64,000 nt of DNA from an uncultured Acidobacteriota bacterium (GTDB lineage: Bacteria > Acidobacteriota > Vicinamibacteria > Vicinamibacterales > SCN-69-37). The notes under the pieces are model-generated. The model searched no databases. It was not told the origin of the DNA and saw only the letters and a program-made list of their open reading frames with translations. Shown in pieces: positions 259 to 62,531 of the stretch. The stretch lies in NCBI GenBank assembly GCA_963752045.1, contig CAVVWN010000007.1, positions 157,961 to 221,960 of the forward strand, in the 5' to 3' direction. The translations under genes and the position numbers were made by a program. The first letter of the stretch is position 1; each line of letters starts with the position of its first letter.

Positions 259-437
259 GAATCTGGGATCTGGGATCTGGGATCTGGGGGCATCTGGCGA
301 TCTGCCGATCTGCCGATCTGGTGACCGTGAGTCCGGCGGTCGCGTCGGCGGGCCACGGCTCGGCTCGACGGCCGATCCCAGATCCGAAGATCCCAGATGC
401 CGTGAGATCCCAGATCCCCAGATCCCAGATTCAGATG
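259..437. repeat. foldback of GATC-containing 7/8-bp tandem arrays (left arm 261-323, core 324-373, right arm 374-437)
   Basis: Left arm is 4x ATCTGGG then 4x ATCTGSYG-type 8-mers. The right arm is the complementary GATCCCA-type array. Outer ends GAATCTGGGATCTGGG (259-) and CCCAGATCCCAGATTC (-432) are complementary, with one indel further in. It fills the gap between the SDR stop (431-433) and the symporter ATG (240). Confidence 0.9.
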
Positions 438-12049: not shown

Positions 12050-13864
12050 TCAGGCGGGCTCTTCGTGAATCGCCCGCAGGATGGTGTCGCCCAGCACCTC
12101 GGCCTTCTTTGCGCCGATGCCGTAGACCTGTTGGAGCTCGGCCGGCGTCGACGGCCTGAGGCGCGCCAGCTCCCTGAGCGTCGTGTCGTGGAAGATGACG
12201 TAGGGCGGCACGCCGCGCGCGTGCGCGAGCTCGGTGCGCAGGGCGCGGAGGCGGTCGAAGAGCACGCGATCGACACCCTCCCAGGACTCGGCCTCCACGC
12301 GCGACCGGCGCTGCGGCCTGTCCTTCTGCGGCTTCTTCTGACGCGCCAGCTCGAGGCCATCGGCGGCGAGTGGATCCCTGAGCAAGGCCACGCCCTCGGC
12401 GGTGAGCTGCAGCACCGGGTACTGGTCGTCGGTCTGCCGGACGAGCCCGCGCGCCACGAGCTGGTCGATGTAGCCGCGAACCTCGTTCATCGTCGCGTCG
12501 CGCAGGAGGCCGAACACGCTCAGCTGGTCGTGGCCGCGCTCGGTGACCGGACCACCCTCGCTGCCGCGCAGCACGTTGGTCACATGCGCGGCGCCGAACC
12601 GGCCACGCAGCCGCGCCACAGCCGACAGAATCTTGCGCGCAAGTGTCACCGGATCGCTCACCGACTCGAGCTCGCCCAGGCAGTAGTCGCACGCGCCGCA
12701 GTCATCTCGCCCGTACGCCTCGCCGAAGTAGCCGACCAGTCGCCGATGCCGGCATCCGACGCTGCCCGCATACCGCTCCATGTCGCGCAGGAGCGCGCGC
12801 CGCGCGTCGGTGAACGCCCCGTCCTGCTCGAACATCGTCTTCCACCGCATGAAGTCGCCAGCCGAGTAGATCAGAACGCATTCGGCCTCGAGACCATCGC
12901 GACCCGCGCGGCCAGACTCCTGCTGGTAGTGCTCGAGCGACTGCGGAGCCCCGGCATGAACGACGAACCGCACGTTCGAGCGATCGATGCCCATGCCAAA
13001 CGCCACGGTCGCCACGACGACGTCGGCCTCCTCGTTGAGAAAGGCATCCTGATTGCGATGACGCGTCTGGTCGTCGAGTCCGGCGTGATACGCGAGCGCG
13101 CGCACGCCTTCGGCCTGAAGCCACGAAGACAGCGCGTCCACTTCACGACGTGACTGGCAGTAGACGATGCCGGCCTGTCCGGCGTGCCGCGACAGCACGT
13201 CGGTGAGCTGCTTCTTGAGCACGCCCCGCGCCAGCACCCGGTAGACCAGGTTTGGCCGGTCGAAGGAGCCTACAAGCTCCACTGGATCGCGGAGTCCAAG
13301 CTGCGAGACGATGTCCTGTCGCACCCGCGCGGTGGCCGTGGCGGTGAAGGCATGAAGCGCCGCGTCGGGCCACCGATCGCGCAGCCTGGCGAGCTGCCGG
13401 TACTCGGGGCGGAAATCGTGGCCCCACTGGCTGATGCAATGCGCTTCGTCGATGGCGAAGAAGCTGAGCGGCTGCCGATCGACCAGGTTCAGGAAGCTCC
13501 CGCTTCCCTCCCCCACCAGCCGCTCCGGCGCGACGTATAGCAGCCGGTAGCGTCCGGTACGAATGCCCTCCGCCACCTCGGCGCGCCGATCGGGCGTGAG
13601 CGAGCTGTTGTAGCAGGCGGCAGGCACGCCGTTTTCCACGAGCGTGTCCACCTGGTCCTTCATGAGCGAAATGAGCGGGGAGACGACCACGGCAAGACCG
13701 TCCATCAGGAGCGCCGGCGCCTGAAAGCAGACCGACTTGCCGCCGCCGGTCGGCAGCACCAGCAACGAGTCGCGCCGGGCGAGGATGGCGTCCATCGCCT
13801 CCCGCTGATGCGGGCGGAACGAGGAGAAGCCCCAGTAACGCGACAGGACTTCCTGAAGGGACAT
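12050..13864 (-). CDS. recQ: ATP-dependent DNA helicase RecQ
   Basis: It has FRPHQREAM, LPTGGGKS, DEAHCISQWGHDFRPEY, a Cys4 zinc module (CRHRRL...CGACDYC) and a C-terminal HRDC-like region. Confidence 0.95.
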   Translation of the reverse strand: MSLQEVLSRYWGFSSFRPHQREAMDAILARRDSLLVLPTGGGKSVCFQAPALLMDGLAVVVSPLISLMKDQVDTLVENGVPAACYNSSLTPDRRAEVAEGIRTGRYRLLYVAPERLVGEGSGSFLNLVDRQPLSFFAIDEAHCISQWGHDFRPEYRQLARLRDRWPDAALHAFTATATARVRQDIVSQLGLRDPVELVGSFDRPNLVYRVLARGVLKKQLTDVLSRHAGQAGIVYCQSRREVDALSSWLQAEGVRALAYHAGLDDQTRHRNQDAFLNEEADVVVATVAFGMGIDRSNVRFVVHAGAPQSLEHYQQESGRAGRDGLEAECVLIYSAGDFMRWKTMFEQDGAFTDARRALLRDMERYAGSVGCRHRRLVGYFGEAYGRDDCGACDYCLGELESVSDPVTLARKILSAVARLRGRFGAAHVTNVLRGSEGGPVTERGHDQLSVFGLLRDATMNEVRGYIDQLVARGLVRQTDDQYPVLQLTAEGVALLRDPLAADGLELARQKKPQKDRPQRRSRVEAESWEGVDRVLFDRLRALRTELAHARGVPPYVIFHDTTLRELARLRPSTPAELQQVYGIGAKKAEVLGDTILRAIHEEPA

Positions 13865-13878
13865 CAGGACATCATACG

Positions 13879-13987
13879 GGTAACGACAGGTACGACAGGT
13901 ACGACGGGTACGACAGGTACGACAGGTACGACAGGTACGACAGGTACGACAGGTACGACGGGTACGACGGGTACGACGGGTGCCTCA
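13879..13987. repeat. tandem array of 9-bp unit GGTACGAC(A/G): 10 perfect units (13889-13978) plus a degenerate unit on each side
   Basis: Counted by hand. It reads (C/T)GTCGTACC on the recQ sense strand and ends 14 nt before the recQ ATG. Confidence 0.95.
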
Positions 13988-47185: not shown

Positions 47186-47188
47186 GCG

Positions 47189-47233
47189 GGTACGACAGGT
47201 ACGACGGGTACGACGGGTACGACGGGTACGTGG
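47189..47233. repeat. tandem array GGTACGAC(A/G), 4 units plus 1 degenerate (left arm of a foldback)
   Basis: It starts 3 nt after the methyltransferase TGA (47183-47185). The unit is the same as at 13889-13978. Confidence 0.95.
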
Positions 47234-47383
47234 AACGAGCTGGCGCTGGCCAGCCTTCTTCATGTGCTGGAGACGGTCGAATCAGAGAAGAGCTCGTGAG
47301 CCCTGTGGGAGTAGTGGCGAGCCGGCTTCGGTCACGTGCGGGAGTCCGCATTTGAGTAGAAGATGACAAGCTTCAGGTTCCTC

Positions 47384-47452
47384 GTACCCGTCGTACCCGT
47401 CGTACCTGTCGTACCTGTCGTACCCGTCGTACCCGTCGTACCTGTCGTACCC
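47384..47452. repeat. tandem array GTACC(C/T)GTC, 7 units plus a partial unit (right arm, reverse complement of the left arm)
   Basis: Counted by hand. It ends 11 nt before ATG 47464 of the first GT4 gene. Confidence 0.95.
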
Positions 47453-47463
47453 GAGATCTCTTG

Positions 47464-48609: not shown

Positions 48610-49874
48610 GCTCACCGCTTCGGATTCTCGTCACGACCGATGCGTTTCCGCCGGTTTGCGGGGGCAGCGGATGGAGCAGCTGGGAGCTGGTCCGCGGCCT
48701 GGCCGCGCGCGGCCACCACGTCGAGGTCGTCAAGGTCGAGGCCGGACCGGCCGGCCACCTCGACACGACCTATGAGGGCGTCCGCGTCACGATCTTCAGG
48801 CAGCAGGCACCCGCCGTGCCGGTCGTCCGCAACGTCGCGAAGAACGAGCGGATGTGGTCGAAAGCGACCGCTTACCTGATCGACAGGCTTCGCACCGCGC
48901 CCATGGACGTCGTCCACGCGCAACACGTGATGAGCACCGTGCCGAGCATCAGGGCGGCTTCGCGAACCGGCACGCCGGTCGTCGCGACGGTTCGCGACTA
49001 CTGGCCGGTCTGCTACTGGTCCGACCTCATCCACGACCCAGCCTCGCCCACGCTGTGCCCCGCCTGTTCGACGGCCATGATGCGCCAGTGCGTGCGACCG
49101 CGCGCGGGCAATGCAGGCGTCGCCGCCTGGTCGCTGATCCCGTACATGCGCGCCAACCTGCGACGCAAGCGAACGACGCTCGCCCGCGCGAGCGCCGTCA
49201 TCGCCGTCAGCCACCGCATCGCCCACGACCTCGAGACCCGGGCGCCCGAGCTGCGCCAGACACCCGTGTTCACGATTCCCAACCCCGTGGACCTCGCGAT
49301 GCTCGATCGAGCCGGGACGGCCGCGGCCCCGCTCGACGGGGCCTACGCGCTCTACGCCGGCAAGCTCGCGCCGAACAAGGGCGCGCAGTTCCTGCTGCCC
49401 GCCTGGGCCGAAGCCGGGCTCGACTGGCCGCTCGTCGTGGCCGGCGACGGCCCGCTCCGCGCGGCGCTCGAAGAAGACGCCGCGCGTCGCCGACTCGACG
49501 TTCGTTTCCTCGGCTGGTGCGACCGGCCGGACGTGTGGAAGTGGATGCGGCACGCCACGATGCTGGCCTTCCCGTCGTACGGCCCCGAGTCTCTCAGCCG
49601 GGTGCTGCTCGAAGCCGCGGCGCTCGGCACGCCAATCGCCGCGATGGAGACCGGCGGAACGGCCGACATCCTCAAACACGGTGTGACGGCACTCCTCTCG
49701 GCCTCGAGAGAAGCGTTTGCCGAGGACCTTGCGACGCTCGGCCGTGATGAGCGGCTGCGCGCGAAGCTCGGCCACGCGGCTCGAGAGGACGTGCGGGCGC
49801 GGTTCTCGGCGGCCTCGGTCGTGGACCGGATCGAACAGGTTTACCGGGGACTGCTCCAACCCAGGGCAGCCTGA
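48606..49874 (+). CDS. glycosyltransferase family 4
   Basis: ATGA start/stop overlap with the previous gene. It has LRILVTTDAFPPVCGGSGWS and GPESLSRVLLEAAALGTPIAA. Confidence 0.85.
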   Translation: MSSPLRILVTTDAFPPVCGGSGWSSWELVRGLAARGHHVEVVKVEAGPAGHLDTTYEGVRVTIFRQQAPAVPVVRNVAKNERMWSKATAYLIDRLRTAPMDVVHAQHVMSTVPSIRAASRTGTPVVATVRDYWPVCYWSDLIHDPASPTLCPACSTAMMRQCVRPRAGNAGVAAWSLIPYMRANLRRKRTTLARASAVIAVSHRIAHDLETRAPELRQTPVFTIPNPVDLAMLDRAGTAAAPLDGAYALYAGKLAPNKGAQFLLPAWAEAGLDWPLVVAGDGPLRAALEEDAARRRLDVRFLGWCDRPDVWKWMRHATMLAFPSYGPESLSRVLLEAAALGTPIAAMETGGTADILKHGVTALLSASREAFAEDLATLGRDERLRAKLGHAAREDVRARFSAASVVDRIEQVYRGLLQPRAA

Positions 49875-52705: not shown

Positions 52706-54771
52706 CGTCCGTCATGCCAGCCGCGCCGGTCGTGGCCCTCTGGTGTGCCGGTACTCTCGGGCATTTTCTGCTGACCGCCGTGTGGGTCGATCGTTTCGGC
52801 CGAACCGGCGAGACCGGCGACGCCCGCTTCTTTGCCACCATGCTGTGGGCGACGGCCACCTTGAGTGCGGCGCTTTACGCGGTTGCCTCGACGGTCGGCC
52901 TCGACGTGATGACCGTCGTCTGCCTGCTCGCGGCCGGTCATTTCGTCACGTGGCGCCTCGGCGCCGGGAGGTGGGGGGCACATCTCGCCCACCCCCCGGC
53001 GCCGACCCGTGCGCTCGAAGTCGCCGCGGCCGTGACGCTCGGTGCGATCGTGCTTCGATGGGTGATCGTCGCCGCGCCAACGCTCGAGGTGAGCGGGACC
53101 GATGCGGCGCACTATCACATTCCGAACGCCGTGAACCTCGCCCTCGGCGCCAGTCCGTTCGACCTGCCGCCGAGCTCGCATCTGTACCCGATGGGCAGCA
53201 GCATGCTTGCCGCCTGGTTCATCCTGCCGTTCGGCGACGCGCTCCTGACCGACCTGACGATGGTCATCCCGTTCCTGCTGCTGGCATCGGGATTGGGCTG
53301 GCTCTTCCGCCTGACGACCGGGCTTTCCGGCCTTGCGTGGATGACGTGGCCCGTGCTCGCGCTCTTTGGCACGCGCCTGTTCCGGTCGGCGAGCCTCATG
53401 TCTGCCGACCTGATGTTTGCCGCAACGGTCACGGCTCTGGCTGCGCTCCTGTCGGCGATCGTCCTCGAGCGACGGCTGTCGCGGTGGTCACTCGTCTCGA
53501 CCGCGCTCGCCGCCGGGCTTCTGCTGGGTGCGAAGACCACCGGACTCATCGCGCTCGTCCTCCTCTCCGCGCCCGCGGTTGGGATCCTCGCCGTGATGGC
53601 CTGGCGCGGCATGGTCAGGATCGACGTGCGGCCGGCCGCGCTGACGTCGCTCGTCTCCGGCGTTGCGTTGGTTGCGGCCGGCGGGATCTGGCTGATTCGA
53701 AACTGGTGGGTATGGGGATCGCCGGTCGTGCCGAACGGCCTGACGCTCTTGGGCATTGAGATCTTCGCCGGCGTTCCGTTCGAGCGGTCCACCTACCTCT
53801 CCGTGCTTGGCGATCTCGCACGCGACCCGGCGTACCCGCTCGCCGAACGCGCCCGTCACTACATCAGCGAGTGGCTGAGCCCCTGGTACTTTCTGGCACT
53901 CGTCCCGATGGCGGCGATTCCGATCGACGCGCTCATCAACCGGCTGCGCGGCGGCCCGGGCGAACCCGCCGTCCGGCGGCTCGCTCTGCTGGCTCTCGTG
54001 GCGGGCACCATGGCGCCGATGCTCTGGCTGCTGGCCGGGGCACCCTGGACGAGCCTCGAGTGGACACGCGGGATGGCCCTGCGTTACGCGCAACCCTGGT
54101 GGGCCCTGCTGCCACTCGTGGCCACGGTCGGACTGTTTCCGGTGAGCGTTCCCTGGTACCGGCGGCCGATCCCCGCGGCCATCGCGGGTGCGGCACTGGT
54201 GACTGGAAGCATGATCGCCCTCAGCGCCGACGCCGGCATGCCGTATCCGCCACTGCCCACCGCAGCGACGTTACTCGGCGCTGGAATGCTGTGGGTGTGG
54301 GCCCGGCCGGGTGTGCGGGGGCGGATCTGGCAGGGCATCGCCGGCCTGGCCGTGATCTCGATCGCGTTCGCGGCATGGACGGTCCGGCTCGATGCGGACG
54401 CGCGCGCGGCGAGCGCCGCGGCCGCATCAGCGGTGCCGCCGACACCCGTGCGCCTCATCTACGAGGCGGCGCAGAATCACGAAGCGGCAAGCGGCAGGAC
54501 CTGCACGCAGCGCCGTTTTTTCGTGACCACACGGCTCGACGAGCCGCTGGGCCTCCAGGGCGTGGACTTCAGCAATCTCGTGTTCTATGCCGCCCGCGAC
54601 GTGGCCGTGACCTCGACGGTCGATCCGCTCGGAACGTGTGACTACGTCATCAGCTCGCGGGCCGTGCTCACGACGAAGAAGGGCGTGGATCTTCTCGGCG
54701 CGGTGAACCCCTACGCGGCCACGGTCGAGATCGCCGAGGCCCCTCCGTTCGTGCTCCTCGGCAAGCGCTGA
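52702..54771 (+). CDS. large polytopic membrane protein, possible GT-C-like glycosyltransferase or polymerase
   Basis: GTGA overlap with the previous gene. 689 aa, hydrophobic helices throughout, and an early-loop motif GTDAAHYHIPNA. Family not recognised with confidence. Confidence 0.5.
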   Translation: MTSVMPAAPVVALWCAGTLGHFLLTAVWVDRFGRTGETGDARFFATMLWATATLSAALYAVASTVGLDVMTVVCLLAAGHFVTWRLGAGRWGAHLAHPPAPTRALEVAAAVTLGAIVLRWVIVAAPTLEVSGTDAAHYHIPNAVNLALGASPFDLPPSSHLYPMGSSMLAAWFILPFGDALLTDLTMVIPFLLLASGLGWLFRLTTGLSGLAWMTWPVLALFGTRLFRSASLMSADLMFAATVTALAALLSAIVLERRLSRWSLVSTALAAGLLLGAKTTGLIALVLLSAPAVGILAVMAWRGMVRIDVRPAALTSLVSGVALVAAGGIWLIRNWWVWGSPVVPNGLTLLGIEIFAGVPFERSTYLSVLGDLARDPAYPLAERARHYISEWLSPWYFLALVPMAAIPIDALINRLRGGPGEPAVRRLALLALVAGTMAPMLWLLAGAPWTSLEWTRGMALRYAQPWWALLPLVATVGLFPVSVPWYRRPIPAAIAGAALVTGSMIALSADAGMPYPPLPTAATLLGAGMLWVWARPGVRGRIWQGIAGLAVISIAFAAWTVRLDADARAASAAAASAVPPTPVRLIYEAAQNHEAASGRTCTQRRFFVTTRLDEPLGLQGVDFSNLVFYAARDVAVTSTVDPLGTCDYVISSRAVLTTKKGVDLLGAVNPYAATVEIAEAPPFVLLGKR

Positions 54772-54787
54772 CCCGCCGGGCGATCGG

Positions 54788-55294
54788 TCAGCGCAGACCC
54801 GCGCGCACGCGCAGGCCGGCAATCCAGCCGGCGATGGCCTCGGACCGATCCGCCGCCGGGACGCTCCCAAAACGGTTCTCGATGTACGCCCGGATCGTCA
54901 CTGCATCTTTGAGCCAGGCCTCGAGCTCGTCCTCACTCATCCCGGCTTCCCCGAGCAGGACCCGCGTATCGACAGCGGGATCGAGCCGCGACCGCCAGCG
55001 TTCGCGTTCGGCGTCGACGAGATCCGGATCGGGCGGCGCGGGATTGAACCGGGCCACCTCGGCCACCATGAGCCAGTGGTTCTCGAGCGCGCGCTGAATG
55101 TCCGCATCGGTCGTCGCCTCGGCCGCGACGAGCTGCAACTGACGAGCCCGTCTCACATCGAGCTGGGTGATCACCTGATTACCCACACGCACGAGCACCC
55201 GGTCGACCTCGACCTGGGCGCCAACAGGAACGGCCGCAACGCCCATCAACACACCCATGACCGCCGAAGCCCACCGTGCCCTCGAAGATCTCAT
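54788..55294 (-). CDS. periplasmic SurA-N-terminal-domain-like chaperone candidate
   Basis: ORF trimmed to MRSSRARWASAVMGVLMGVAAVPVGA (signal). VDRVLVRVGNQVITQLDVRRA resembles the SurA_N start. It lies last in the tamB-bamA gene string. Confidence 0.45.
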   Translation of the reverse strand: MRSSRARWASAVMGVLMGVAAVPVGAQVEVDRVLVRVGNQVITQLDVRRARQLQLVAAEATTDADIQRALENHWLMVAEVARFNPAPPDPDLVDAERERWRSRLDPAVDTRVLLGEAGMSEDELEAWLKDAVTIRAYIENRFGSVPAADRSEAIAGWIAGLRVRAGLR

Positions 55295-55320
55295 CACCAC
55301 CACCCCCGTCGCCGCACCCC

Positions 55321-55415
55321 CGAACCCCGAACCCTCGGACCGTCGGACCGTCGGACCCCCGGACCTTCGGACCCCCGGACCGTCGGACCGTCGGACCCTC
55401 GGACCCTCGGACCTC
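55321..55415. repeat. tandem array of 8-bp unit CGGACCNN: 10 units (55336-55415) preceded by 2 degenerate CGAACCC units
   Basis: Counted by hand. It directly abuts the TAG (55416-55418) of the bamA-type gene and ends 26 nt before ATG 55294 of the next gene. The 8-bp period is incompatible with coding. Confidence 0.95.
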
Positions 55416-58362
55416 CTAGAACGCCTCCCCGATGCTGAAGTGCATCTCCCACAGGCGTTCCGGGCGGCCATTGAAGACCAGGCGGCTCATCTTGAACCCC
55501 ACGTCGAAGCGGAGTGGCCCGAGCGGGGAATCCCACCTGACGCCGAGCCCGGACGTGCCTCGGAGCCGGCCGAGGTCGAGGTCGCCGACCCGTCGGAACA
55601 CGTTGCCGCCGTCGACGAACCCGACCCCGACCAGACGCCGGCCGAACAAGTTACCGATACCGGCGCGCAGTTCCGCATTTACGACGATGACGGCGTTTCC
55701 GCCATTCGACAGACCGTCGTCATTGAGGATCTCCGACACGCCGAGCCGGTCGAGCTGGAAGCCGCGCACGGTGGTGCCGCCGCCGGCAAAGAACCGCTGG
55801 CTGGCTGGAAGGTCGTCGAGCGCGACGTCGGGAATGGGCTCGAAGGCAACCGGCTCCTCGAGCGGCAACCGGCGCTCGGCGGCTCTGGCAAGACCAAGCT
55901 GCGCGCGCGTGGCGAGAATGAACCGGCGATCCTCGGACAGCGGCGTGAACCGGACGGCCTGAAAGAATGTCTTGACGTAGTTGACTTCCGAGCCAATCGC
56001 CGTGAGCGCGGTTTCGATGTCCGCGGTGGCGAACGTCCCGCGCGTCGGCGCCACCAGGCTGTCACGCCTGTCCCACACGACGCCGGTAGAAAGCGTCGAC
56101 AGGCGCACCTGGGGAAAGAGCCGGTCGATGGCCGGCTGGTCCTCCGGAGGGATGAGCTCGTCGAAGAGCTTGGTGAAGTCCAGCCCGTAGCGTCCGGTCA
56201 CGCTGACGGTCGGCGAGACCCGGTGGAGGATCTCGGCGTTGACCGCCCGGCGCAGGAAGTTGAAATTCGTCCGGGTTGCCTGCTCCGACGTGAGGCCGAA
56301 CAGGATCTCCGAGTCGCTGCCAAAAGCGCGCCGTTCGCGATAGGCCACCGTGGTCCGGGTACTCGACGAACCCGAACGTGCCTCCCGAGTCGCCGATTTC
56401 CTTCAGCGTGGCGCGCTTGAGACTGAGCCGCCCGAAGAAGCTCAGGGTGCGGTCGCGCCCGCCGATGTGCCGCCTGGCCAGCTCGACGAAACCCCGCGGG
56501 GCGATCTCGAGCACCTCCTCGATGCGCTGACCGGCGAACGATTGTGGCCGACGGCCGGCCTCGATGCCGCCGCCGTAGCCAACGGTGGTTGCCGGAGCCT
56601 CGTCGACGGAGAGGATCACGTGCGCGCGCATGTCGCCAGGCGGTCTTGGCTGCTCGCTGAACGACGCGCGGGATACGCCGAGCTCCGCCAGCCGTCGCCG
56701 GCTCTCGTTGATGGCCGCCGGGCCGAACGGCTGCCCGGGCTTCAGCATGATGCGTTCGAGGATCGTCTCTTCCGACACCCGCTCGTTGCCGACCACCGTA
56801 ATCTGCGCGACGATGGTCTGGGGCCCTTCGGTGATGTGAAACGTCAGGTCGACGGAGGTGCCTTCGTCGGCGAACACCGGCTCGCGCGCTTCGACCCGAG
56901 CCGCGCGGAAGCCGCGGTCCTGATAGAGCGTCTCCAGATCGAGTCGGTCGAAGTAGACGGCCGCGACCGAGTACGGTTCCCCGGGCCGCGATCGCATCAC
57001 GGCCCGGAGATCGGCTTCGGGAACGACCGCGCTGGCGTCGGCCGGCTCGATCGCCACGGACCGCAGCAGGCCGCGAGGCCCTTCGACGATCTCCGGATTG
57101 AGGGCGAGCCAGGCCTCGGCCGGCGTCGACCTGTCGGCGTCCTCGGTGTACTGGGGTGTCGCCTCGACCGCATAGAAACCCTGCCGCTGGTACTCCAGGG
57201 CGACGCGCTGAATCCCCTGCAGCACGCGGGCATCGTCGACGGGATCGCCCGGCTTGACGCCAATCGCATCGCGAATCACGTCGTCGCCGAGGGCCAGTCC
57301 GGCAGGCAGATCGATACGAGCCAGGCGGTAGCGTCGCCCTCGCGTGACATGAAACGTGATGATGAGCTCGTCTCCCCGCGCCTCCCGCGTGTGGAAGACG
57401 TCGGCCTGCCGGTAGCCATCCTGCTCGAGCGCGCTGCGGATCAACTGGTCGGCGTCCTCGAGGAGATCTTCGTCGGCGAGGCCTTCACGCCGAATCGGGA
57501 CGAGGTCGTCCACGTTGCCACCAGGGCGCGCGTCTCCGGCCCACTCGACGCGAATGCGCGGCCCCGCGCCGATGATGAGCTCGAGATCGACCGCCGTGCG
57601 GTCGGCCGACTCGGTGACCTGGGGGTTCGCGAACGCGGAGTAGTAGCCGAGGCCGCTCAGCTGATCTCGCAGGCCGGCGAGCGCGCTCGAGAGCGCGCGC
57701 GGCCGATACGGGCTGCCTTCGACGGCGCCCGTCCGGTCGCGGATCTGCCGCTCGGAGAGCGGCGACTGGTTGTCGATGGTCACGCTCGCGATGCGGGCCT
57801 GCACACCGGCGTCCACGTCGATCGCGAGCGTCGCCCGTGAAGCACCGGCCGTCCGCACCGTCGCCGCCCGGGCCCGGGCACCGAGAAAGCCCTCGTCGTT
57901 GAGGGCCCGTTCGACGGCCTGCTCCACGTTGCGCAGGTTGGCGTTGGCTGGTGGCAGCCCGCCATACAGGTCGCGAACGTATCGCTGCAGGTCCGCCTCG
58001 GGCACCCCGAGCGTTCCCGCGAATGTGACCCGCTCGATCGGCAGCCTCGGCTCGAGGGCGATGGTGACGATGAGGCCGGCTGGCCCGTCGGCCACGAGCA
58101 GGCGGACGTCGTCGAAACGCGCGAGCCGCCCGAAGTGGTCCATTGTGGTACGAACGTCGACGATCGACAGCGGCCTGCCGACGGTGATCTCGACGAGGTC
58201 GCGCAACGAGCTGTCCGACTGCGGCACTCCCGCGAGCTCGATGCGGATCTCGGCCACGGTCCGGCCCGCAAACGACGCGACCGGGTCCTGCGCGAACGCC
58301 CCGGCCGGCAGAGACGCCGCGAGCAGGCCGACGAGGAGAACGGCAAGCGGGCGCGGACGCAT
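55416..58362 (-). pseudogene. bamA: BamA/Omp85-family outer membrane protein assembly factor, reading frame interrupted by a 1-nt frameshift near 56357-56359
   Basis: ORF 56062..58362 encodes a signal peptide, POTRA-like repeats and the first barrel strands up to ...GGTFGFVEY. ORF 55416..56348 continues in another frame with ...RTTVAYRERRAFGSDSEILFGL... to the Omp85 terminus HFSIGEAF. Removing one C of the CCC run (GGG 56357-56359 on plus) joins them. This could be a true pseudogene or a homopolymer sequencing error. Confidence 0.75.
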
Positions 58363-61300
58363 CAGAAGACGTACCGTATCCGAAAGTCGAGCGCGAAGGT
58401 CCGATCTTCGTTGCGGGACAGCACCCAGGACAGCCGGTCGCTCTGATCGTATTCGAGCAGGATGACTTCGTATTCGGCAGAGCTGTTGAGCGCGCGCGAG
58501 TACGTCAGAAACACGCGGCTCGAGATGCGTTTCCCGAGCGTGATGCGAGCCGTCGGGTTGAGCTGCTGCAGCGTGGCCTCGTCGCCGAGAAGCGGCGTAA
58601 TCGCAATCGTGTCGATCGGCACCGCCTGCTGCACGACCCGCTGCACGCCGCTCGTGATCGGCGAGGCCAGCACCTGCGCGGCCGCCGTCCGAAGCAGCAT
58701 CGCCTGCGCCTGCTGCGGCGACTGCAGCGACCGCTGCTCCACCTGGCCGAGGTCCGGAAGCTCGCCGAACATCAGCCCGAGAATGTCGATGTCGCTCGCG
58801 AGCGGCGGGTCGGACGTGAGCGTCGGCACGAACGAGTCCTTCGTGCCGGTCACGCGCAGGTCCACCTGGTACGTCTGCCCGGGAATGCGCACGCGCGTGA
58901 CGAGCTCGACGTCGAAGTACGGATCGAACCCGGACCCGCCGCCCTGGAAGTCCACCACGCCGCGCTGGACGATGTAGCGGTTCCCGGAAAAGAAGAGCTC
59001 GCCCTGGTCGATCGACACCCCTCCGACCAGCTGCGGCCGGTCCACCGTGCCGGAAAACAGCAGGTCCGCGCTCGCCCAGATCGTCGCATCCGGAAGACGG
59101 ATGACGGGTTCGGGCAGCCGGCTCGCCACCACGCGCACGTCGAAGACCAGCGGGAAGCCGGTCGGCTGGGACGGCGCATCAGGCAGCCCCCGTTCACCGC
59201 CAATCTGGCCGGATGCCGCCGACAGGTAGCCGAGGAGTCCCGCGCCCGGATCCAGCGGGACGCGGTAGTTTGCGCGCAGCACATCGACGGTGCCCGAGAG
59301 ACGCGGCGCCTCGGGCGGGCCCGTGAGCGACAGATCGGCGTTGAGCGTGGAGCGCAGGCCCTCGGGATAGCGCAGGTTCATCGCCGTGCCGGTCGCGCGC
59401 ACGTTGAACTCGGAGATCGCCGTGCCCTCGAGCAGAATCGCGCCGCCGAACCGCACCTGCCCGTCACCGAGCCGTCCGCCGAGCGCATCGAGGTTCACGC
59501 CGGTGCGGTCGAAGACGATCACGCCGTTGACGTCCGTCAGGCTCTGCGCGAAGGCGCTGTGGCGGATACGCCCGTCGGTGATCTGCGCCTGCCCCCCAAG
59601 GCGATAGCCGTCGAGCGGCCCTTCGAGGTTCGCCCGCAACGACGCGGCACCGGTCGCCCGCACGTCGGGAAAAAACAGCTGCAGAATCGTGAGGCTGGCA
59701 TCGCCGTCGAGCCGGACGTTGACGTCGGAGGTCTCAAGGTCCACGCCGCCCGACAGCGCCAGACTCGTGTCGGTGCCCGTCAGGCGCAGTTCGTCGATCG
59801 CAAAGCGGTTGTCGACGAACGACAGCCGGACCGGTCCGTCGTTGCTGAGCGTGAACTGCAGCAGCGTCAGGCTGGCCTCGTCGAGCGTGGCCGTCACGCC
59901 GAGCGACTCGACGGTGGCGAGCGGACCCTCGACGTGGATGCGGCCGGTGGCCGTGGCGACGGCGTAGCCGGCCAGCTCGGGCCCGAAGAACCGGATGTAC
60001 GGATCGAGCGAGGTCTCGAAGAACGACAGGTCGAGTACCGCGTCGGAACCCTCGGTGAGCGAGACGCGACCCGACCCGCTGATCGTCCCAAGCGGCGAGG
60101 TCGCGAGGAAGTTGTCGATCGTCATGGCGTCGCCGCGCACCGTCAGCCGGGCGCTGACCTGCCCGACGAACTCGTCCCCGACGTAGAGGTCGGGAACGAC
60201 CGGCGTGAACTCGTAGGTCGGGTCGTCGAACGATCCGCCACCGGTGGCCGTGAAGTGCATCACGCCGGTGAACGGCGCGCGCTCGAGCTTGAAGTTGTCG
60301 AGCGACTCGACCGGAATCTGTCCGCCGTCGGCGTCGAAGTCGTAGGTGTTGTCCCAGCCGATGTGCGCGGCCCCGCGCACCCTGCCGCCGCCCTTGTCCA
60401 TCTCGATGCCGCGGATTTGCAGGCCGTCGCCCTCGAACTCGAGCTCACCCGTCACCCAGGCGAACCGTTCGCCCCAGGCCTCGCCGGGCTCGATGCGCAA
60501 CCGGCCGGAGCCAACCGGTCCGCGGTACGGCCCGCTCAGGGCCAGGTCGACCTCGGACACGATGCCGTCCACCGACCAGTCGTCGAGACCGAACGCGTGA
60601 CGAAGATCGGACAGCGGCCAGCCCGTCAGCCGGAACCGGGCATCGATCTCCTCGCTGCCGTCGTCGCGGAAGCCGAGGGCAAAGCGGCCGTCGGTGCGAA
60701 TCGTGCCGCCAGTCGCGCTTCGGACCGAGCCGTCGCTGATCTCGACGAAGCCGCCTTCGACCACGAGGTCACCGGTCGCGTCACCCCACTCGACGTCCCA
60801 CGCCCGCAGCGCCTCGCTCACGAACCGTCCCGTGACGCGCGGGCGCGAAAACAGCCCGGTCATGCGGCCGTCGAACGTCCCCCGGCCGCCAACCTCAATC
60901 GCCTTCGTGGGCGACCCGCGCGACGTCAGCACGGCGGCGAGCAGCCGATCGCTTTCCTGCCATTCCCGGCTCGTGGCCCGGAAGGCGATGTCGGCCTCCC
61001 CGCCGCCGGACCTGCCGCTGAACGAGACGTACGTCGTCGGCGTGGCCGCCCAGCTCTCGTCGAAGTGGAGGCCCGACGGATCGAATCGATATCGGATCTC
61101 TCCGGCTGCCGGAAACGGCCCGAGGGGTGCCGCTCCGTCGAACGGCCTGACGGTCGGCGGCCGGATGTACGGTTCGTCGGGGACCGTGGCGCTGGCAATG
61201 CGCACGCCCGCAGGCGCGGCAATCGTCGTCAGGCCCTCGCCCGTCAGGCCCTCGCCGAACCGGCCGTTCGGCCAGCTCATCGAGGCGTTCCCCGTCAGCC

Positions 61301-62531
61301 GGCCGCGCGGATCGAGGCCGCCGAGATCGACCCGCGCGCCAAGCGCCAGAAGGTCCACGCCCGTGTAGTCCGCGCTGAACGTCGCCGTCGCTCCGCCCGG
61401 CGATCCGAGCGGGGCCAGGCCGTAGGCGAGCGTCATGTCTCCGCCGTAGAAACCAGCGTCGGCGCGGTGCACGCGGAAGCTCTCCGGCAGCCAGGTGAGC
61501 GAGCCACGCAGGTTCCGGAAATCGAAGCCGTTGACGCCGGCGAGCGCGCTCGAGAAGTCGCCCGAGAGTTCGCGGCCCTCCTTGAAGACGTGGAAGAACC
61601 CGTTGAACCGGCCCTGGCCGCTGAACACCCAATCCTGGCTCGCGAAGAACAGCTCGCGCATCCGCGGAAAATCGATCGTGGACTGCACGTCGTAACGCTG
61701 CTCCGGCCAGTTGCCGAAGTCGACGACGCCCGTGATGCTCGACCGCGCGCCGTCCGTATCGAGGTCGATCTGATGCAGGCGGACGAGCGAGCCGTCGATC
61801 GTGAAGCGCGTCCTGAAGTTCGCCCACATCGGCAGGAAATCGATGATGCGCACCGTGCCGTCCGAGAACCGCGCGGTGCCGTCATAGCGCCCGTACGCCC
61901 GGTTGCGAACCACGCTCACGTCGAGGTTCGGCGCCACGACGCTCCAGGGAGCCCCATGGTCGTCGTAGGTGAACTGGCCATCGAGCGCGTGCACGAAATG
62001 AACGCGGGTGCGCACGATCGGTGGCCGATCCGAGGGCGGACCGCCGCCACCGGTGCGAAGCCTCGGCAGGTTGTGACGGCCGTCGGCCCACCGTTCGATG
62101 ACCATGTCCCAGTCGGTCATCGTCACCTCGAGGACGATCTCGTTACTCCAGAGCGCGGACCAGTTGATGTGCACGCCGATCCGGCGCGCGGTGAGAAATG
62201 GCCGATCGGCCGGGTCGAGCCCCTCGATGACGAGGTCCTCGATCACGAAGTCCCCCGGCGTGATCTTGGCCGAGATGCTGCCGATGCGCATCGGCCGCTC
62301 GAGAAACCGGCTGCCCTCGCGCTCGGCGAGCGCGCGCACGTCGACGAAGGGGATCCGCGCCAGATCGATCGTGAAGAACGCGACGACCAGCGCAGCCACC
62401 ATCGCCGCGCCAATTTCCAGCGCTCGGCGGGTCCACCGTCCGAGCGCGCGCCGCTTGCGGCCCCGGACGCGCGGCGGCGTCTCGCCGGGCGCTGGAGGAT
62501 CGGGCGGATGCGACGTGTGGGCCCCGCTCAC
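58362..62531 (-). CDS. tamB: translocation and assembly module protein TamB (AsmA-like/DUF490 family)
   Basis: 1389 aa with an N-terminal TM anchor (IGAAMVAALVVAFFTI), a long beta-rich body and a DUF490-type C-terminus ...LLEYDQSDRLSWVLSRNEDRTFALDFRIRYVF. Its TGA overlaps the bamA ATG by 1 nt. Confidence 0.85.
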   Translation of the reverse strand: MSGAHTSHPPDPPAPGETPPRVRGRKRRALGRWTRRALEIGAAMVAALVVAFFTIDLARIPFVDVRALAEREGSRFLERPMRIGSISAKITPGDFVIEDLVIEGLDPADRPFLTARRIGVHINWSALWSNEIVLEVTMTDWDMVIERWADGRHNLPRLRTGGGGPPSDRPPIVRTRVHFVHALDGQFTYDDHGAPWSVVAPNLDVSVVRNRAYGRYDGTARFSDGTVRIIDFLPMWANFRTRFTIDGSLVRLHQIDLDTDGARSSITGVVDFGNWPEQRYDVQSTIDFPRMRELFFASQDWVFSGQGRFNGFFHVFKEGRELSGDFSSALAGVNGFDFRNLRGSLTWLPESFRVHRADAGFYGGDMTLAYGLAPLGSPGGATATFSADYTGVDLLALGARVDLGGLDPRGRLTGNASMSWPNGRFGEGLTGEGLTTIAAPAGVRIASATVPDEPYIRPPTVRPFDGAAPLGPFPAAGEIRYRFDPSGLHFDESWAATPTTYVSFSGRSGGGEADIAFRATSREWQESDRLLAAVLTSRGSPTKAIEVGGRGTFDGRMTGLFSRPRVTGRFVSEALRAWDVEWGDATGDLVVEGGFVEISDGSVRSATGGTIRTDGRFALGFRDDGSEEIDARFRLTGWPLSDLRHAFGLDDWSVDGIVSEVDLALSGPYRGPVGSGRLRIEPGEAWGERFAWVTGELEFEGDGLQIRGIEMDKGGGRVRGAAHIGWDNTYDFDADGGQIPVESLDNFKLERAPFTGVMHFTATGGGSFDDPTYEFTPVVPDLYVGDEFVGQVSARLTVRGDAMTIDNFLATSPLGTISGSGRVSLTEGSDAVLDLSFFETSLDPYIRFFGPELAGYAVATATGRIHVEGPLATVESLGVTATLDEASLTLLQFTLSNDGPVRLSFVDNRFAIDELRLTGTDTSLALSGGVDLETSDVNVRLDGDASLTILQLFFPDVRATGAASLRANLEGPLDGYRLGGQAQITDGRIRHSAFAQSLTDVNGVIVFDRTGVNLDALGGRLGDGQVRFGGAILLEGTAISEFNVRATGTAMNLRYPEGLRSTLNADLSLTGPPEAPRLSGTVDVLRANYRVPLDPGAGLLGYLSAASGQIGGERGLPDAPSQPTGFPLVFDVRVVASRLPEPVIRLPDATIWASADLLFSGTVDRPQLVGGVSIDQGELFFSGNRYIVQRGVVDFQGGGSGFDPYFDVELVTRVRIPGQTYQVDLRVTGTKDSFVPTLTSDPPLASDIDILGLMFGELPDLGQVEQRSLQSPQQAQAMLLRTAAAQVLASPITSGVQRVVQQAVPIDTIAITPLLGDEATLQQLNPTARITLGKRISSRVFLTYSRALNSSAEYEVILLEYDQSDRLSWVLSRNEDRTFALDFRIRYVF

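Follow-up and report, generated by a model that had tools for sequence, protein, structure and literature searches.

Between a bamA-type gene and the gene that follows it, the 64-kb stretch of DNA analyzed here (the window, taken at its full length) carries a tandem array of 8-bp units. Does this array act on the genes around it, as a first-pass annotation had suggested in proposing a G-quadruplex (G4) at this site, or is it a simple repeat without a dedicated function? We consider the second answer the probable one, namely that the array is a slippage-generated long-unit SSR (an octanucleotide repeat of VNTR type). Less probable readings are weighed below at the points where the evidence bears on them.

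The octamer array and its gene neighborhood

The array was confirmed as ten copies of CGGACC on the plus strand (55336, 55344 ... 55408), with all nine consecutive spacings exactly 8 bp. Its first unit (GAGGTCCG on the minus strand) begins at 55415, 0 nt after the bamA TAG, as the first-pass annotation had stated. Equally correct were its observations that GGACC occurs in every unit (the CGGACC core is present in 10 of 10 perfect units) and that four units contain CGGACCG (at 55336, 55344, 55376, and 55384). The array had also been said to end 26 nt before the next ATG, which needs correction: the perfect units end 41 nt, and the degenerate units approximately 21 nt, before the ATG at 55294. 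The complete bamA-to-next-gene spacer is 121 nt long (55295-55415), and the array occupies only part of it. TRF called the repeat at 55316-55413 (period 8, 12.4 copies, 85% matches, score 119), and also reported multi-unit block periods of 24 and 32 bp. A two-unit pattern, GGTCCGNNGGTCCG, allowing at most one mismatch, matched 13 times in the window compared to 2.25 ± 1.27 times in shuffles, and 10 of the 13 matches fall in the post-bamA array.

On the minus strand, the first half of the array reads TAG-GAGGTCCG AGGGTCCG AGGGTCCG ACGGTCCG ACGGTCCG GGGGTCCG AAGGTCCG, and the sequence continues after AAGGTCCG as GGGGTCCG ACGGTCCG ACGGTCCG AGGGTTCG GGGTTCG GGGGTGCG GCGACGGGGGTGGTGGTG-ATG. The commonest unit of the array is ACGGTCCG. 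Two spacer bases vary per 8-bp unit while the hexamer core is strictly kept, the variable dinucleotides of the ten sense-strand units (NNGGTCCG) being GA, AG, AG, AC, AC, GG, AA, GG, AC, and AC. Units are perfect beside the stop codon and decayed at the distal end, giving a total of ten to thirteen (ten perfect and about three decayed). The description of the sense strand as G-rich with many G runs was accurate (63 G versus 29 C in 121 nt, 52% G, and eight runs of at least three G). No opposite-strand GGTCCG array that could serve as an inverted partner was found nearby.

The genes on either side form a row with the order tamB-like, bamA-type, and small secreted protein (Table 1), which upholds the earlier placement of the array between genes of an envelope-biogenesis operon. 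The bamA-type protein has the C-terminus ...HFSIGEAF, like its orthologues, and a 1-nt frameshift in a CCC run (near 56358) breaks its reading frame; the orthologue aligns to residues 1-666 in one frame and to residues 667-978 in the next. This break reflects either a homopolymer assembly error or a pseudogene, and the assembly error seems likelier for an essential gene. Based on orthologue comparison, the most plausible start of the downstream gene would be the ATG at 55292-55294, which an SD-like GGGGG(T) at 55302-55307 precedes by 8 nt. The public version of the protein (P0001, 156 aa) starts at an internal ATG at 55258 and lacks a positively charged n-region. As the 168-aa protein matched nothing in Pfam, NCBIfam, or PDB, we do not label it SurA-like. 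Elsewhere in the window, the tRNA-Arg(TCG) call at 49355-49445 on the minus strand is, at 91 nt, unusually long for a tRNA.

Table 1. Coordinates of the post-bamA locus and of the other short-unit repeat arrays in the window.
Feature	Coordinates	Strand	Remarks
tamB-like gene (TamB/DUF748), first of conserved three-gene row	58362..62531	-	
bamA-type gene, POTRA repeats and Omp85 barrel	55416..58362	-	two overlapping ORFs
TAG stop of bamA-type gene	55416..55418	-	
Ten in-phase 8-bp units	55336..55415	-	sense strand NNGGTCCG
Decayed units (about three), 3' end of array	55316..55335	-	AGGGTTCG, GGGTTCG, GGGGT... (GGGGTGCG-like)
G-rich tail, only segment with G-quadruplex potential	55295..55341	-	G4Hunter 2.16; sequence GGGTTCGGGGTTCGGGGGTGCGGCGACGGGGG
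Downstream gene, 168 aa, signal-peptide-like N-terminus (MRSSRARWASAVMGVLMGVAAVPVGA/QVE)	54788..55294	-	
ATCTGGG/ATCTGCCG array with its reverse complement (GATCCCA)	261-320 and 374-430		inverted pair
(ACGACRGGT)11 array, sense strand GTCGTACCY	13883-13981		18 nt upstream of recQ start
(CGGGTACGA)5 array	47187-47230		starts 1 nt after methyltransferase stop codon
(TCGTACCCG)8 array, complement of CGGGTACGA array	47382-47453		ends 10 nt before GT4 glycosyltransferase start

Origin of the array and comparison with known repeats

Only about 20 homologues of the downstream protein were found in 5.8 billion proteins. We compared six independent orthologous loci, in which this protein is 56-76% identical. 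The order tamB, bamA, and small protein is kept in all six, with spacers between bamA and the next gene of 22, 31, 26, 41, 16, and 0 nt (the genes overlap at the sixth). The array is absent from every one of them (0 of 6, with spacers of 0-41 nt), including the nearest relatives (73-76% identical in the neighboring protein). A search of JGI metagenomes for a near-identical strain locus returned no matching contig. At one of the six loci (L005/L006), the 41-nt spacer, GGGGGCCCGACGGTCCGGGTGCGGGCGTGCGGAGGTGCGAA, is made up of degenerate 8-mers in a row, ACGGTCCG among them, in effect a proto-array, and another relative has GCTTAGG twice in its spacer.

The missing array and the short spacers at the six loci point to a recent slippage-type expansion in this lineage, and the proto-array suggests that the amplified motif predates the array, in an operon spacer that was short and rich in G and T. 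Absence from all six loci also argues against conserved regulation of this operon by the array. The gradient from perfect to decayed units and the block duplications fit this origin, as both are typical of arrays growing by slippage or unequal exchange.

The unit type itself is common. Scanning one genome per species for four consecutive GGTCCGNN units recovered at least 116 stretches in genomes of many phyla. Hosts among the matches listed include many Streptomyces and Kitasatospora, Frankia, Micromonospora, Gemmatimonadota, Vicinamibacterales, other Acidobacteriota, Acidimicrobiia, Myxococcota, some Proteobacteria, and one haloarchaeon. Most of the listed arrays consist of 4-18 identical units (GGTCCGCC, GGTCCGGC, GGTCCGGG, and others); they often lie beside other short-period arrays, and several are at contig ends. 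By a crude GC3-based test, 29 of the 116 listed stretches fall inside long ORFs, and approximately a quarter of the listed intergenic arrays are at most 10 nt from a stop codon. Such wide occurrence implies that the unit type arises repeatedly. A literature search for the exact repeat strings found no paper.

The predicted structure of the array is equally unexceptional. Its GGUCC cores pair mutually (with a U.U mismatch) to give a long imperfect predicted RNA hairpin of -57.3 kcal/mol, compared to -64.7 ± 3.4 kcal/mol for dinucleotide shuffles (z = +2.2). As 198 of 200 shuffles were at least as stable, and the predicted DNA fold was likewise weaker than its shuffles, an exceptional RNA or DNA hairpin was rejected. 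Occlusion of the ribosome-binding site by the array was rejected too, since predicted SD/AUG accessibility was 0.555 with the array and 0.556 after its in silico deletion. Rfam 15 returned nothing at the gathering threshold in the window and nothing at E ≤ 1 in 55200-55500. We found no sigma-70 promoter consensus at the array locus, no terminator-like site in 54700-55700, and no T-run after the array; the hairpin plus U-tract of an intrinsic (Rho-independent) terminator was thus missing. The array also does not have the makings of a phase-variation contingency SSR, being intercistronic, without a promoter consensus, and without a translated frame. REP/BIME sequences of enterobacteria are intercistronic or lie 3' of stop codons, occur in many copies, and are often arranged as inverted pairs around a central site, while REPs themselves are single imperfect palindromes of approximately 35 bp and not tandem arrays. 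Although a 9-mer composite in the window (47187-47453) resembles the REP/BIME layout, the post-bamA array does not: it has no inverted partner and no hairpin above chance, and by the same measures (z = +2.2) it is not REP/BIME- or MITE-like.

Rather, the array belongs to a known class, the long-unit intergenic simple repeats of GC-rich bacteria. Long SSRs with units of 5-11 bp were reportedly described by Mrazek et al. in 2007 from non-pathogens with large GC-rich genomes, as a class defined statistically and without a function attached. The array resembles this class in unit length, non-coding site, GC-rich host (68.7%), and presumed origin by polymerase slippage. It also has several attributes of an LSSR/VNTR, with a head-to-tail unit in the 5-11-bp range repeated at least four times at high identity (period 8, 12.4 copies), a non-coding location between the bamA TAG and the next ATG, and a lineage-specific distribution instead of conservation at orthologous sites (six spacers). 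To our knowledge, long-unit repeats in the intergenic DNA of GC-rich bacteria, first noticed in 2007-2015, still have no accepted function.

Closer parallels and differences can be drawn for individual families. Repeats with 6-9-nt units in intergenic DNA are over-represented in large GC-rich genomes, near the 5'-neighboring ORF, and vary in length between related species, with their function left unresolved (PMC4692102). The G-rich heptamer SSRs described by Rehm et al. in 2015 (GGGAATC in Xanthomonas and GGGGA(C/T)T in Nostoc) lie on average 28 nt from the 5' ORF versus 160 nt from the 3' ORF, and convergent inverted pairs are frequent among them (PMC4692102). The post-bamA array is similar in its tandem 6-9-nt-class units, intergenic site, and GC-rich or large host genome, and it likewise follows a stop codon within 50 nt with its G-rich strand as sense (0 nt after the TAG). 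Elsewhere in the window, the inverted pair at 261-320/374-430 (ATCTGGG) closely resembles the Xanthomonas GGGNATC type. Unlike these heptamers, however, the post-bamA unit has 8 nt, with GG instead of GGG tracts and an internal CC (making the core not G4-competent), and is repeated 10-13 times and not the preferred four, in a different phylum. The heptanucleotide elements of Geobacter metallireducens (GGACCGG/GGGACCG x4 at 49 sites, proposed to be regulatory; PMC2700814) share the GGACC core and tandem units and are dispersed at many sites, but they have a 7-nt unit in a fixed four copies and also occur inside genes; the likeness is one of shared core. TAACTGA direct repeats, found at ORF boundaries in Beggiatoaceae and cyanobacteria and possibly acting post-transcriptionally (PMC4679880), are comparable as short-unit direct repeats at an ORF boundary, but are AT-rich, sit a few nucleotides upstream of start codons, and have 2-6 copies (PMC4679880).

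From the array and its position, its absence in orthologues, the proto-array, the unexceptional RNA structure, and the wide occurrence of the unit, we infer slippage as the mechanism, as well as co-transcription, uncoupled translation, and selective near-neutrality. In this view, a ACGGTCCG-like 8-mer within the tamB-bamA-small-protein row would have been amplified by strand slippage or unequal exchange, which enlarged the spacer from at most 41 nt to 121 nt (about fourfold). The array would be transcribed as untranslated intercistronic RNA and would have no sequence-specific regulatory role, its likely consequences being passive. Specifically, the bamA stop codon would have been shifted approximately 100 nt further from the next start codon, with the result that translational coupling would be lost and the downstream gene would rely on its own SD-like GGGGGU, and spacer length would become mutable in 8-bp steps. 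Selective neutrality is suggested by non-conservation at only six loci, and a point against it is that a sister 9-mer family is distributed non-randomly in related soil contigs.

Polarized arrays at ORF boundaries

Besides the post-bamA array, TRF detected four further intergenic arrays of 7-9-bp units in the window (Table 1). The pair at 261-320/374-430 takes up the interval from one TGA stop codon (258-260) to the convergent TGA of an SDR gene (431-433). Counting the post-bamA array, the window has four independent array loci, and in each of them the G-rich strand abuts an ORF boundary with its 5' end. The array at 13883-13981 comes after a terminator-like hairpin of the upstream gene, and the recQ ATG sits in a duplicated 8-mer (TGATGTCC x2, 13859-13874). 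The two 9-mer arrays at 47187-47453 make up a composite element, (CGGGTACGA)n + core + (TCGTACCCG)n, which spans the distance from the methyltransferase stop to the GT4 start. A relative (L003, 5966-6105) carries this inverted 9-mer pair too, in the orthologous methyltransferase/GT4 spacer, at approximately 63% protein identity, although copy numbers and core length differ from those in the window. Rfam assigned the 9-mer composite to no family; its only hit was hairpin-shaped and far below threshold.

A metagenome scan for three GTCGTACCY units recovered at least 120 contigs (L125-L244), mostly from soil and with 62-70% GC. Close inverted pairs number 18 among the contigs listed, and in every one the G-rich arm is on the 5' side and the C-rich arm on the 3' side. 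For arrays that follow the stop codon of a long high-GC3 ORF at a distance of at most 15 nt, the sense strand is the G-rich one in 38 cases and the C-rich one in 8 (p = 9e-6, contigs listed), and most of these listed arrays start 1-5 nt from the stop. Between the paired arms lies a shared oriented core, with GAACGAGCTRNCGCTNGCCANC, a T-rich stretch, and then ...TGGCNAG...CAGGTTC. The polarity of the 9-mer and its retention at an orthologous site indicate that some arrays of this clade are probably maintained by selection or a specific mechanism. In sequence terms, the unit GGTCCGAC of the post-bamA array is one position off GGTACGAC, the first eight bases of the 9-mer, and the array follows the 9-mer rule in that its G-rich strand is the sense strand and starts at a stop codon.

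The same contig set holds related 7-8-mer arrays (GGGTTCCG, GGTTCCGA/GGAGGTTC, GGTCCAAG, and AAAGGTCC), located at 2250-2289 and 3620-3659 in L212, 6373-6513 in L241, 1229-1386 in L237, 2077-2168 in L166, and 2703-2819 in L170. Several lie 0-3 nt after, at, or overlapping stop codons, and some are hairpin-forming inverted pairs; the L241 contig has a run of perfect GGAGG motifs. Very long compound arrays of tens of units occur in L182 and L213. The array at 2250-2289 in L212 fills an operon spacer exactly as the post-bamA array does.

A rival reading places the post-bamA array in a clade-wide class of strand-polarized arrays that are functional and punctuate ORF boundaries. On this reading, RNA would leave an ORF G-rich and Rho-resistant, and any RNA running into the ORF from outside, antisense RNA included, would have C-rich repeats that form a rut-like loading pad; the array would then insulate bamA from antisense or read-in transcription. 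RhoTermPredict takes 78 nt with a C/G ratio above 1 and C at regular spacing as a rut candidate (PMC6407284). The plus-strand (antisense) RNA of 55178-55389 has this composition, to which the RhoTermPredict comparison is confined, with a C/G of 3.73 per 78 nt that is the maximum of the window; only 0.6% of the scanned windows reached a C/G of 2. The strand placement at all four loci of the window and the polarity of the listed 9-mer pairs and post-stop arrays are in line with such a class. So are the related 8-mers with the same layout (GGGTTCCG and GGTTCCGA, for example at 2250-2289 in L212), and the Xanthomonas and Nostoc repeats obey the same positional rule (PMC4692102).

Other counts speak against this reading. 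Arrays of GGTCCGNN in other phyla show no strand bias at stops (11:17 and 9:12 among the matches listed), and a universal strand rule for these arrays is hence unsupported. The non-9-mer arrays of the clade sample divide 8:5, which is not significant, and single 9-mer arrays preceding a co-directional gene split 5:5. At this small sample size, the same 5:5 count also leaves Rho-polarity avoidance, by which C-rich sense arrays would be purged from operon spacers, unsupported. At the bamA locus, an antisense transcript would already run untranslated for approximately 500 nt before reaching the array, and the absence of the array from orthologues would make any such function dispensable. On balance, we consider membership of a functional polarized class rather unlikely, although it is the main rival of the slippage reading. 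A related and broader idea, in our assessment a little more doubtful, is that the array is one case of a soil-bacterial punctuation system of 7-9-mers related to GGT(N)CGA and placed 0-5 nt from ORF boundaries. If this were true, a composite would have a G-arm and a C-arm on the two sides of a conserved, oriented core of approximately 60 nt, and the arrays would be functional insulators or 3'-end elements instead of slippage debris.

G-quadruplex potential, remaining readings, and implications

The G4 proposal was assessed by scanning the 64-kb window with G4Hunter and by searching for G3+N1-7 motifs, then allowing loops of up to 12 nt. The claim of G4 potential was supported only in part, as the potential is weak and confined to the degenerate tail. 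The G4Hunter peak of the entire window (2.16) falls in the post-bamA spacer, within the G-rich tail (55295-55341), while the ten CGGACC units score only 0.24-1.4 because CC accompanies GG in each of them. The spacer lacks a canonical G3+N1-7 motif. With loops of up to 12 nt, a single motif appears, GGG-TTC-GGGG-TTC-GGGGG-TGCGGCGAC-GGGGG, with loops of 3, 3, and 9 nt. Its final G run coincides with the SD-like GGGGG that precedes the ATG by 8 nt. The tail (GGGUUCGGGGUUCGGGGGUGCGGCGACGGGGG) overlaps the ribosome-binding site of the next gene. ViennaRNA with G-quadruplexes enabled gave an energy gain of -13.6 kcal/mol, equaled or exceeded by 33 of 100 mononucleotide shuffles, which means that the repeat arrangement adds nothing beyond base composition. 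Modeled in this way, G4 potential is a property of base composition and the tail, and not of the arrangement of repeats.

Could a G4 in the RNA or non-template DNA of this spacer nonetheless influence how the spacer is transcribed or how the downstream gene is translated? The top-scoring tail has four G3+ runs, the ViennaRNA model places a small G4 just upstream of the AUG, and G4 formation in vitro is documented for G-rich heptamer repeats that belong to this genomic class (PMC4692102). The post-bamA units, however, do not supply the four or more consecutive G3+ tracts of the Rehm class, having GG and only occasionally GGG or GGGGG (12-21 nt apart), with C-containing 6-nt loops. Given also the indifference of the energy gain to shuffling, the array-free orthologous spacers, and the fact that GGTCCGNN arrays elsewhere are mostly GGTCCGCC or GGTCCGGC and not G-rich (among the matches listed), we regard a regulatory G4 at this locus as unlikely.

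Iterated binding of a protein to the units appears improbable. A strictly kept hexamer core with two variable spacer bases would suit a recognition site, short palindromes (GATC, GTAC, and GGWCC) occur in the unit cores of all arrays in the window, and similar proposals were made for the Geobacter GGACCGG x4 elements (PMC2700814) and the TAACTGA repeats (PMC4679880). Against this, recent amplification would leave the core just as well conserved, a period of 8 bp does not match the helical turn of DNA, the analysis turned up no candidate binding protein, and orthologues lack the array. Scarcely credible is an assembly artefact or a translated sequence, such as an N-terminal extension of the downstream protein from an ATG at 55471: the ORF 54788..55471 does stay open through the array, and the bamA frameshift hints at assembly indel errors, but the array is only 100 bp long with heterogeneous units (and so no collapsed perfect repeat), it contains no in-frame start codon, orthologues start at the signal peptide, and an 8-bp unit cannot hold a reading frame when copy number changes. 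Because this ORF starts inside bamA (its ATG lies 56 nt within the gene) and lacks a counterpart in orthologues, translation of the array as coding sequence or as an N-terminal extension was rejected.

Read as a passive simple repeat, the post-bamA array alone matters little, as a recent and dispensable expansion in an operon spacer. It also serves as a warning against taking G-richness in a 69% GC genome for a G-quadruplex signal. The polarized 9-mer composite element is the more promising lead. Its family abuts stop codons, combines a fixed G-arm/C-arm polarity with a conserved core, and has persisted at an orthologous site. With rules this strict, hypotheses such as orientation-specific Rho loading, protection of 3' ends, or a mobile element of MITE type can be tested directly.
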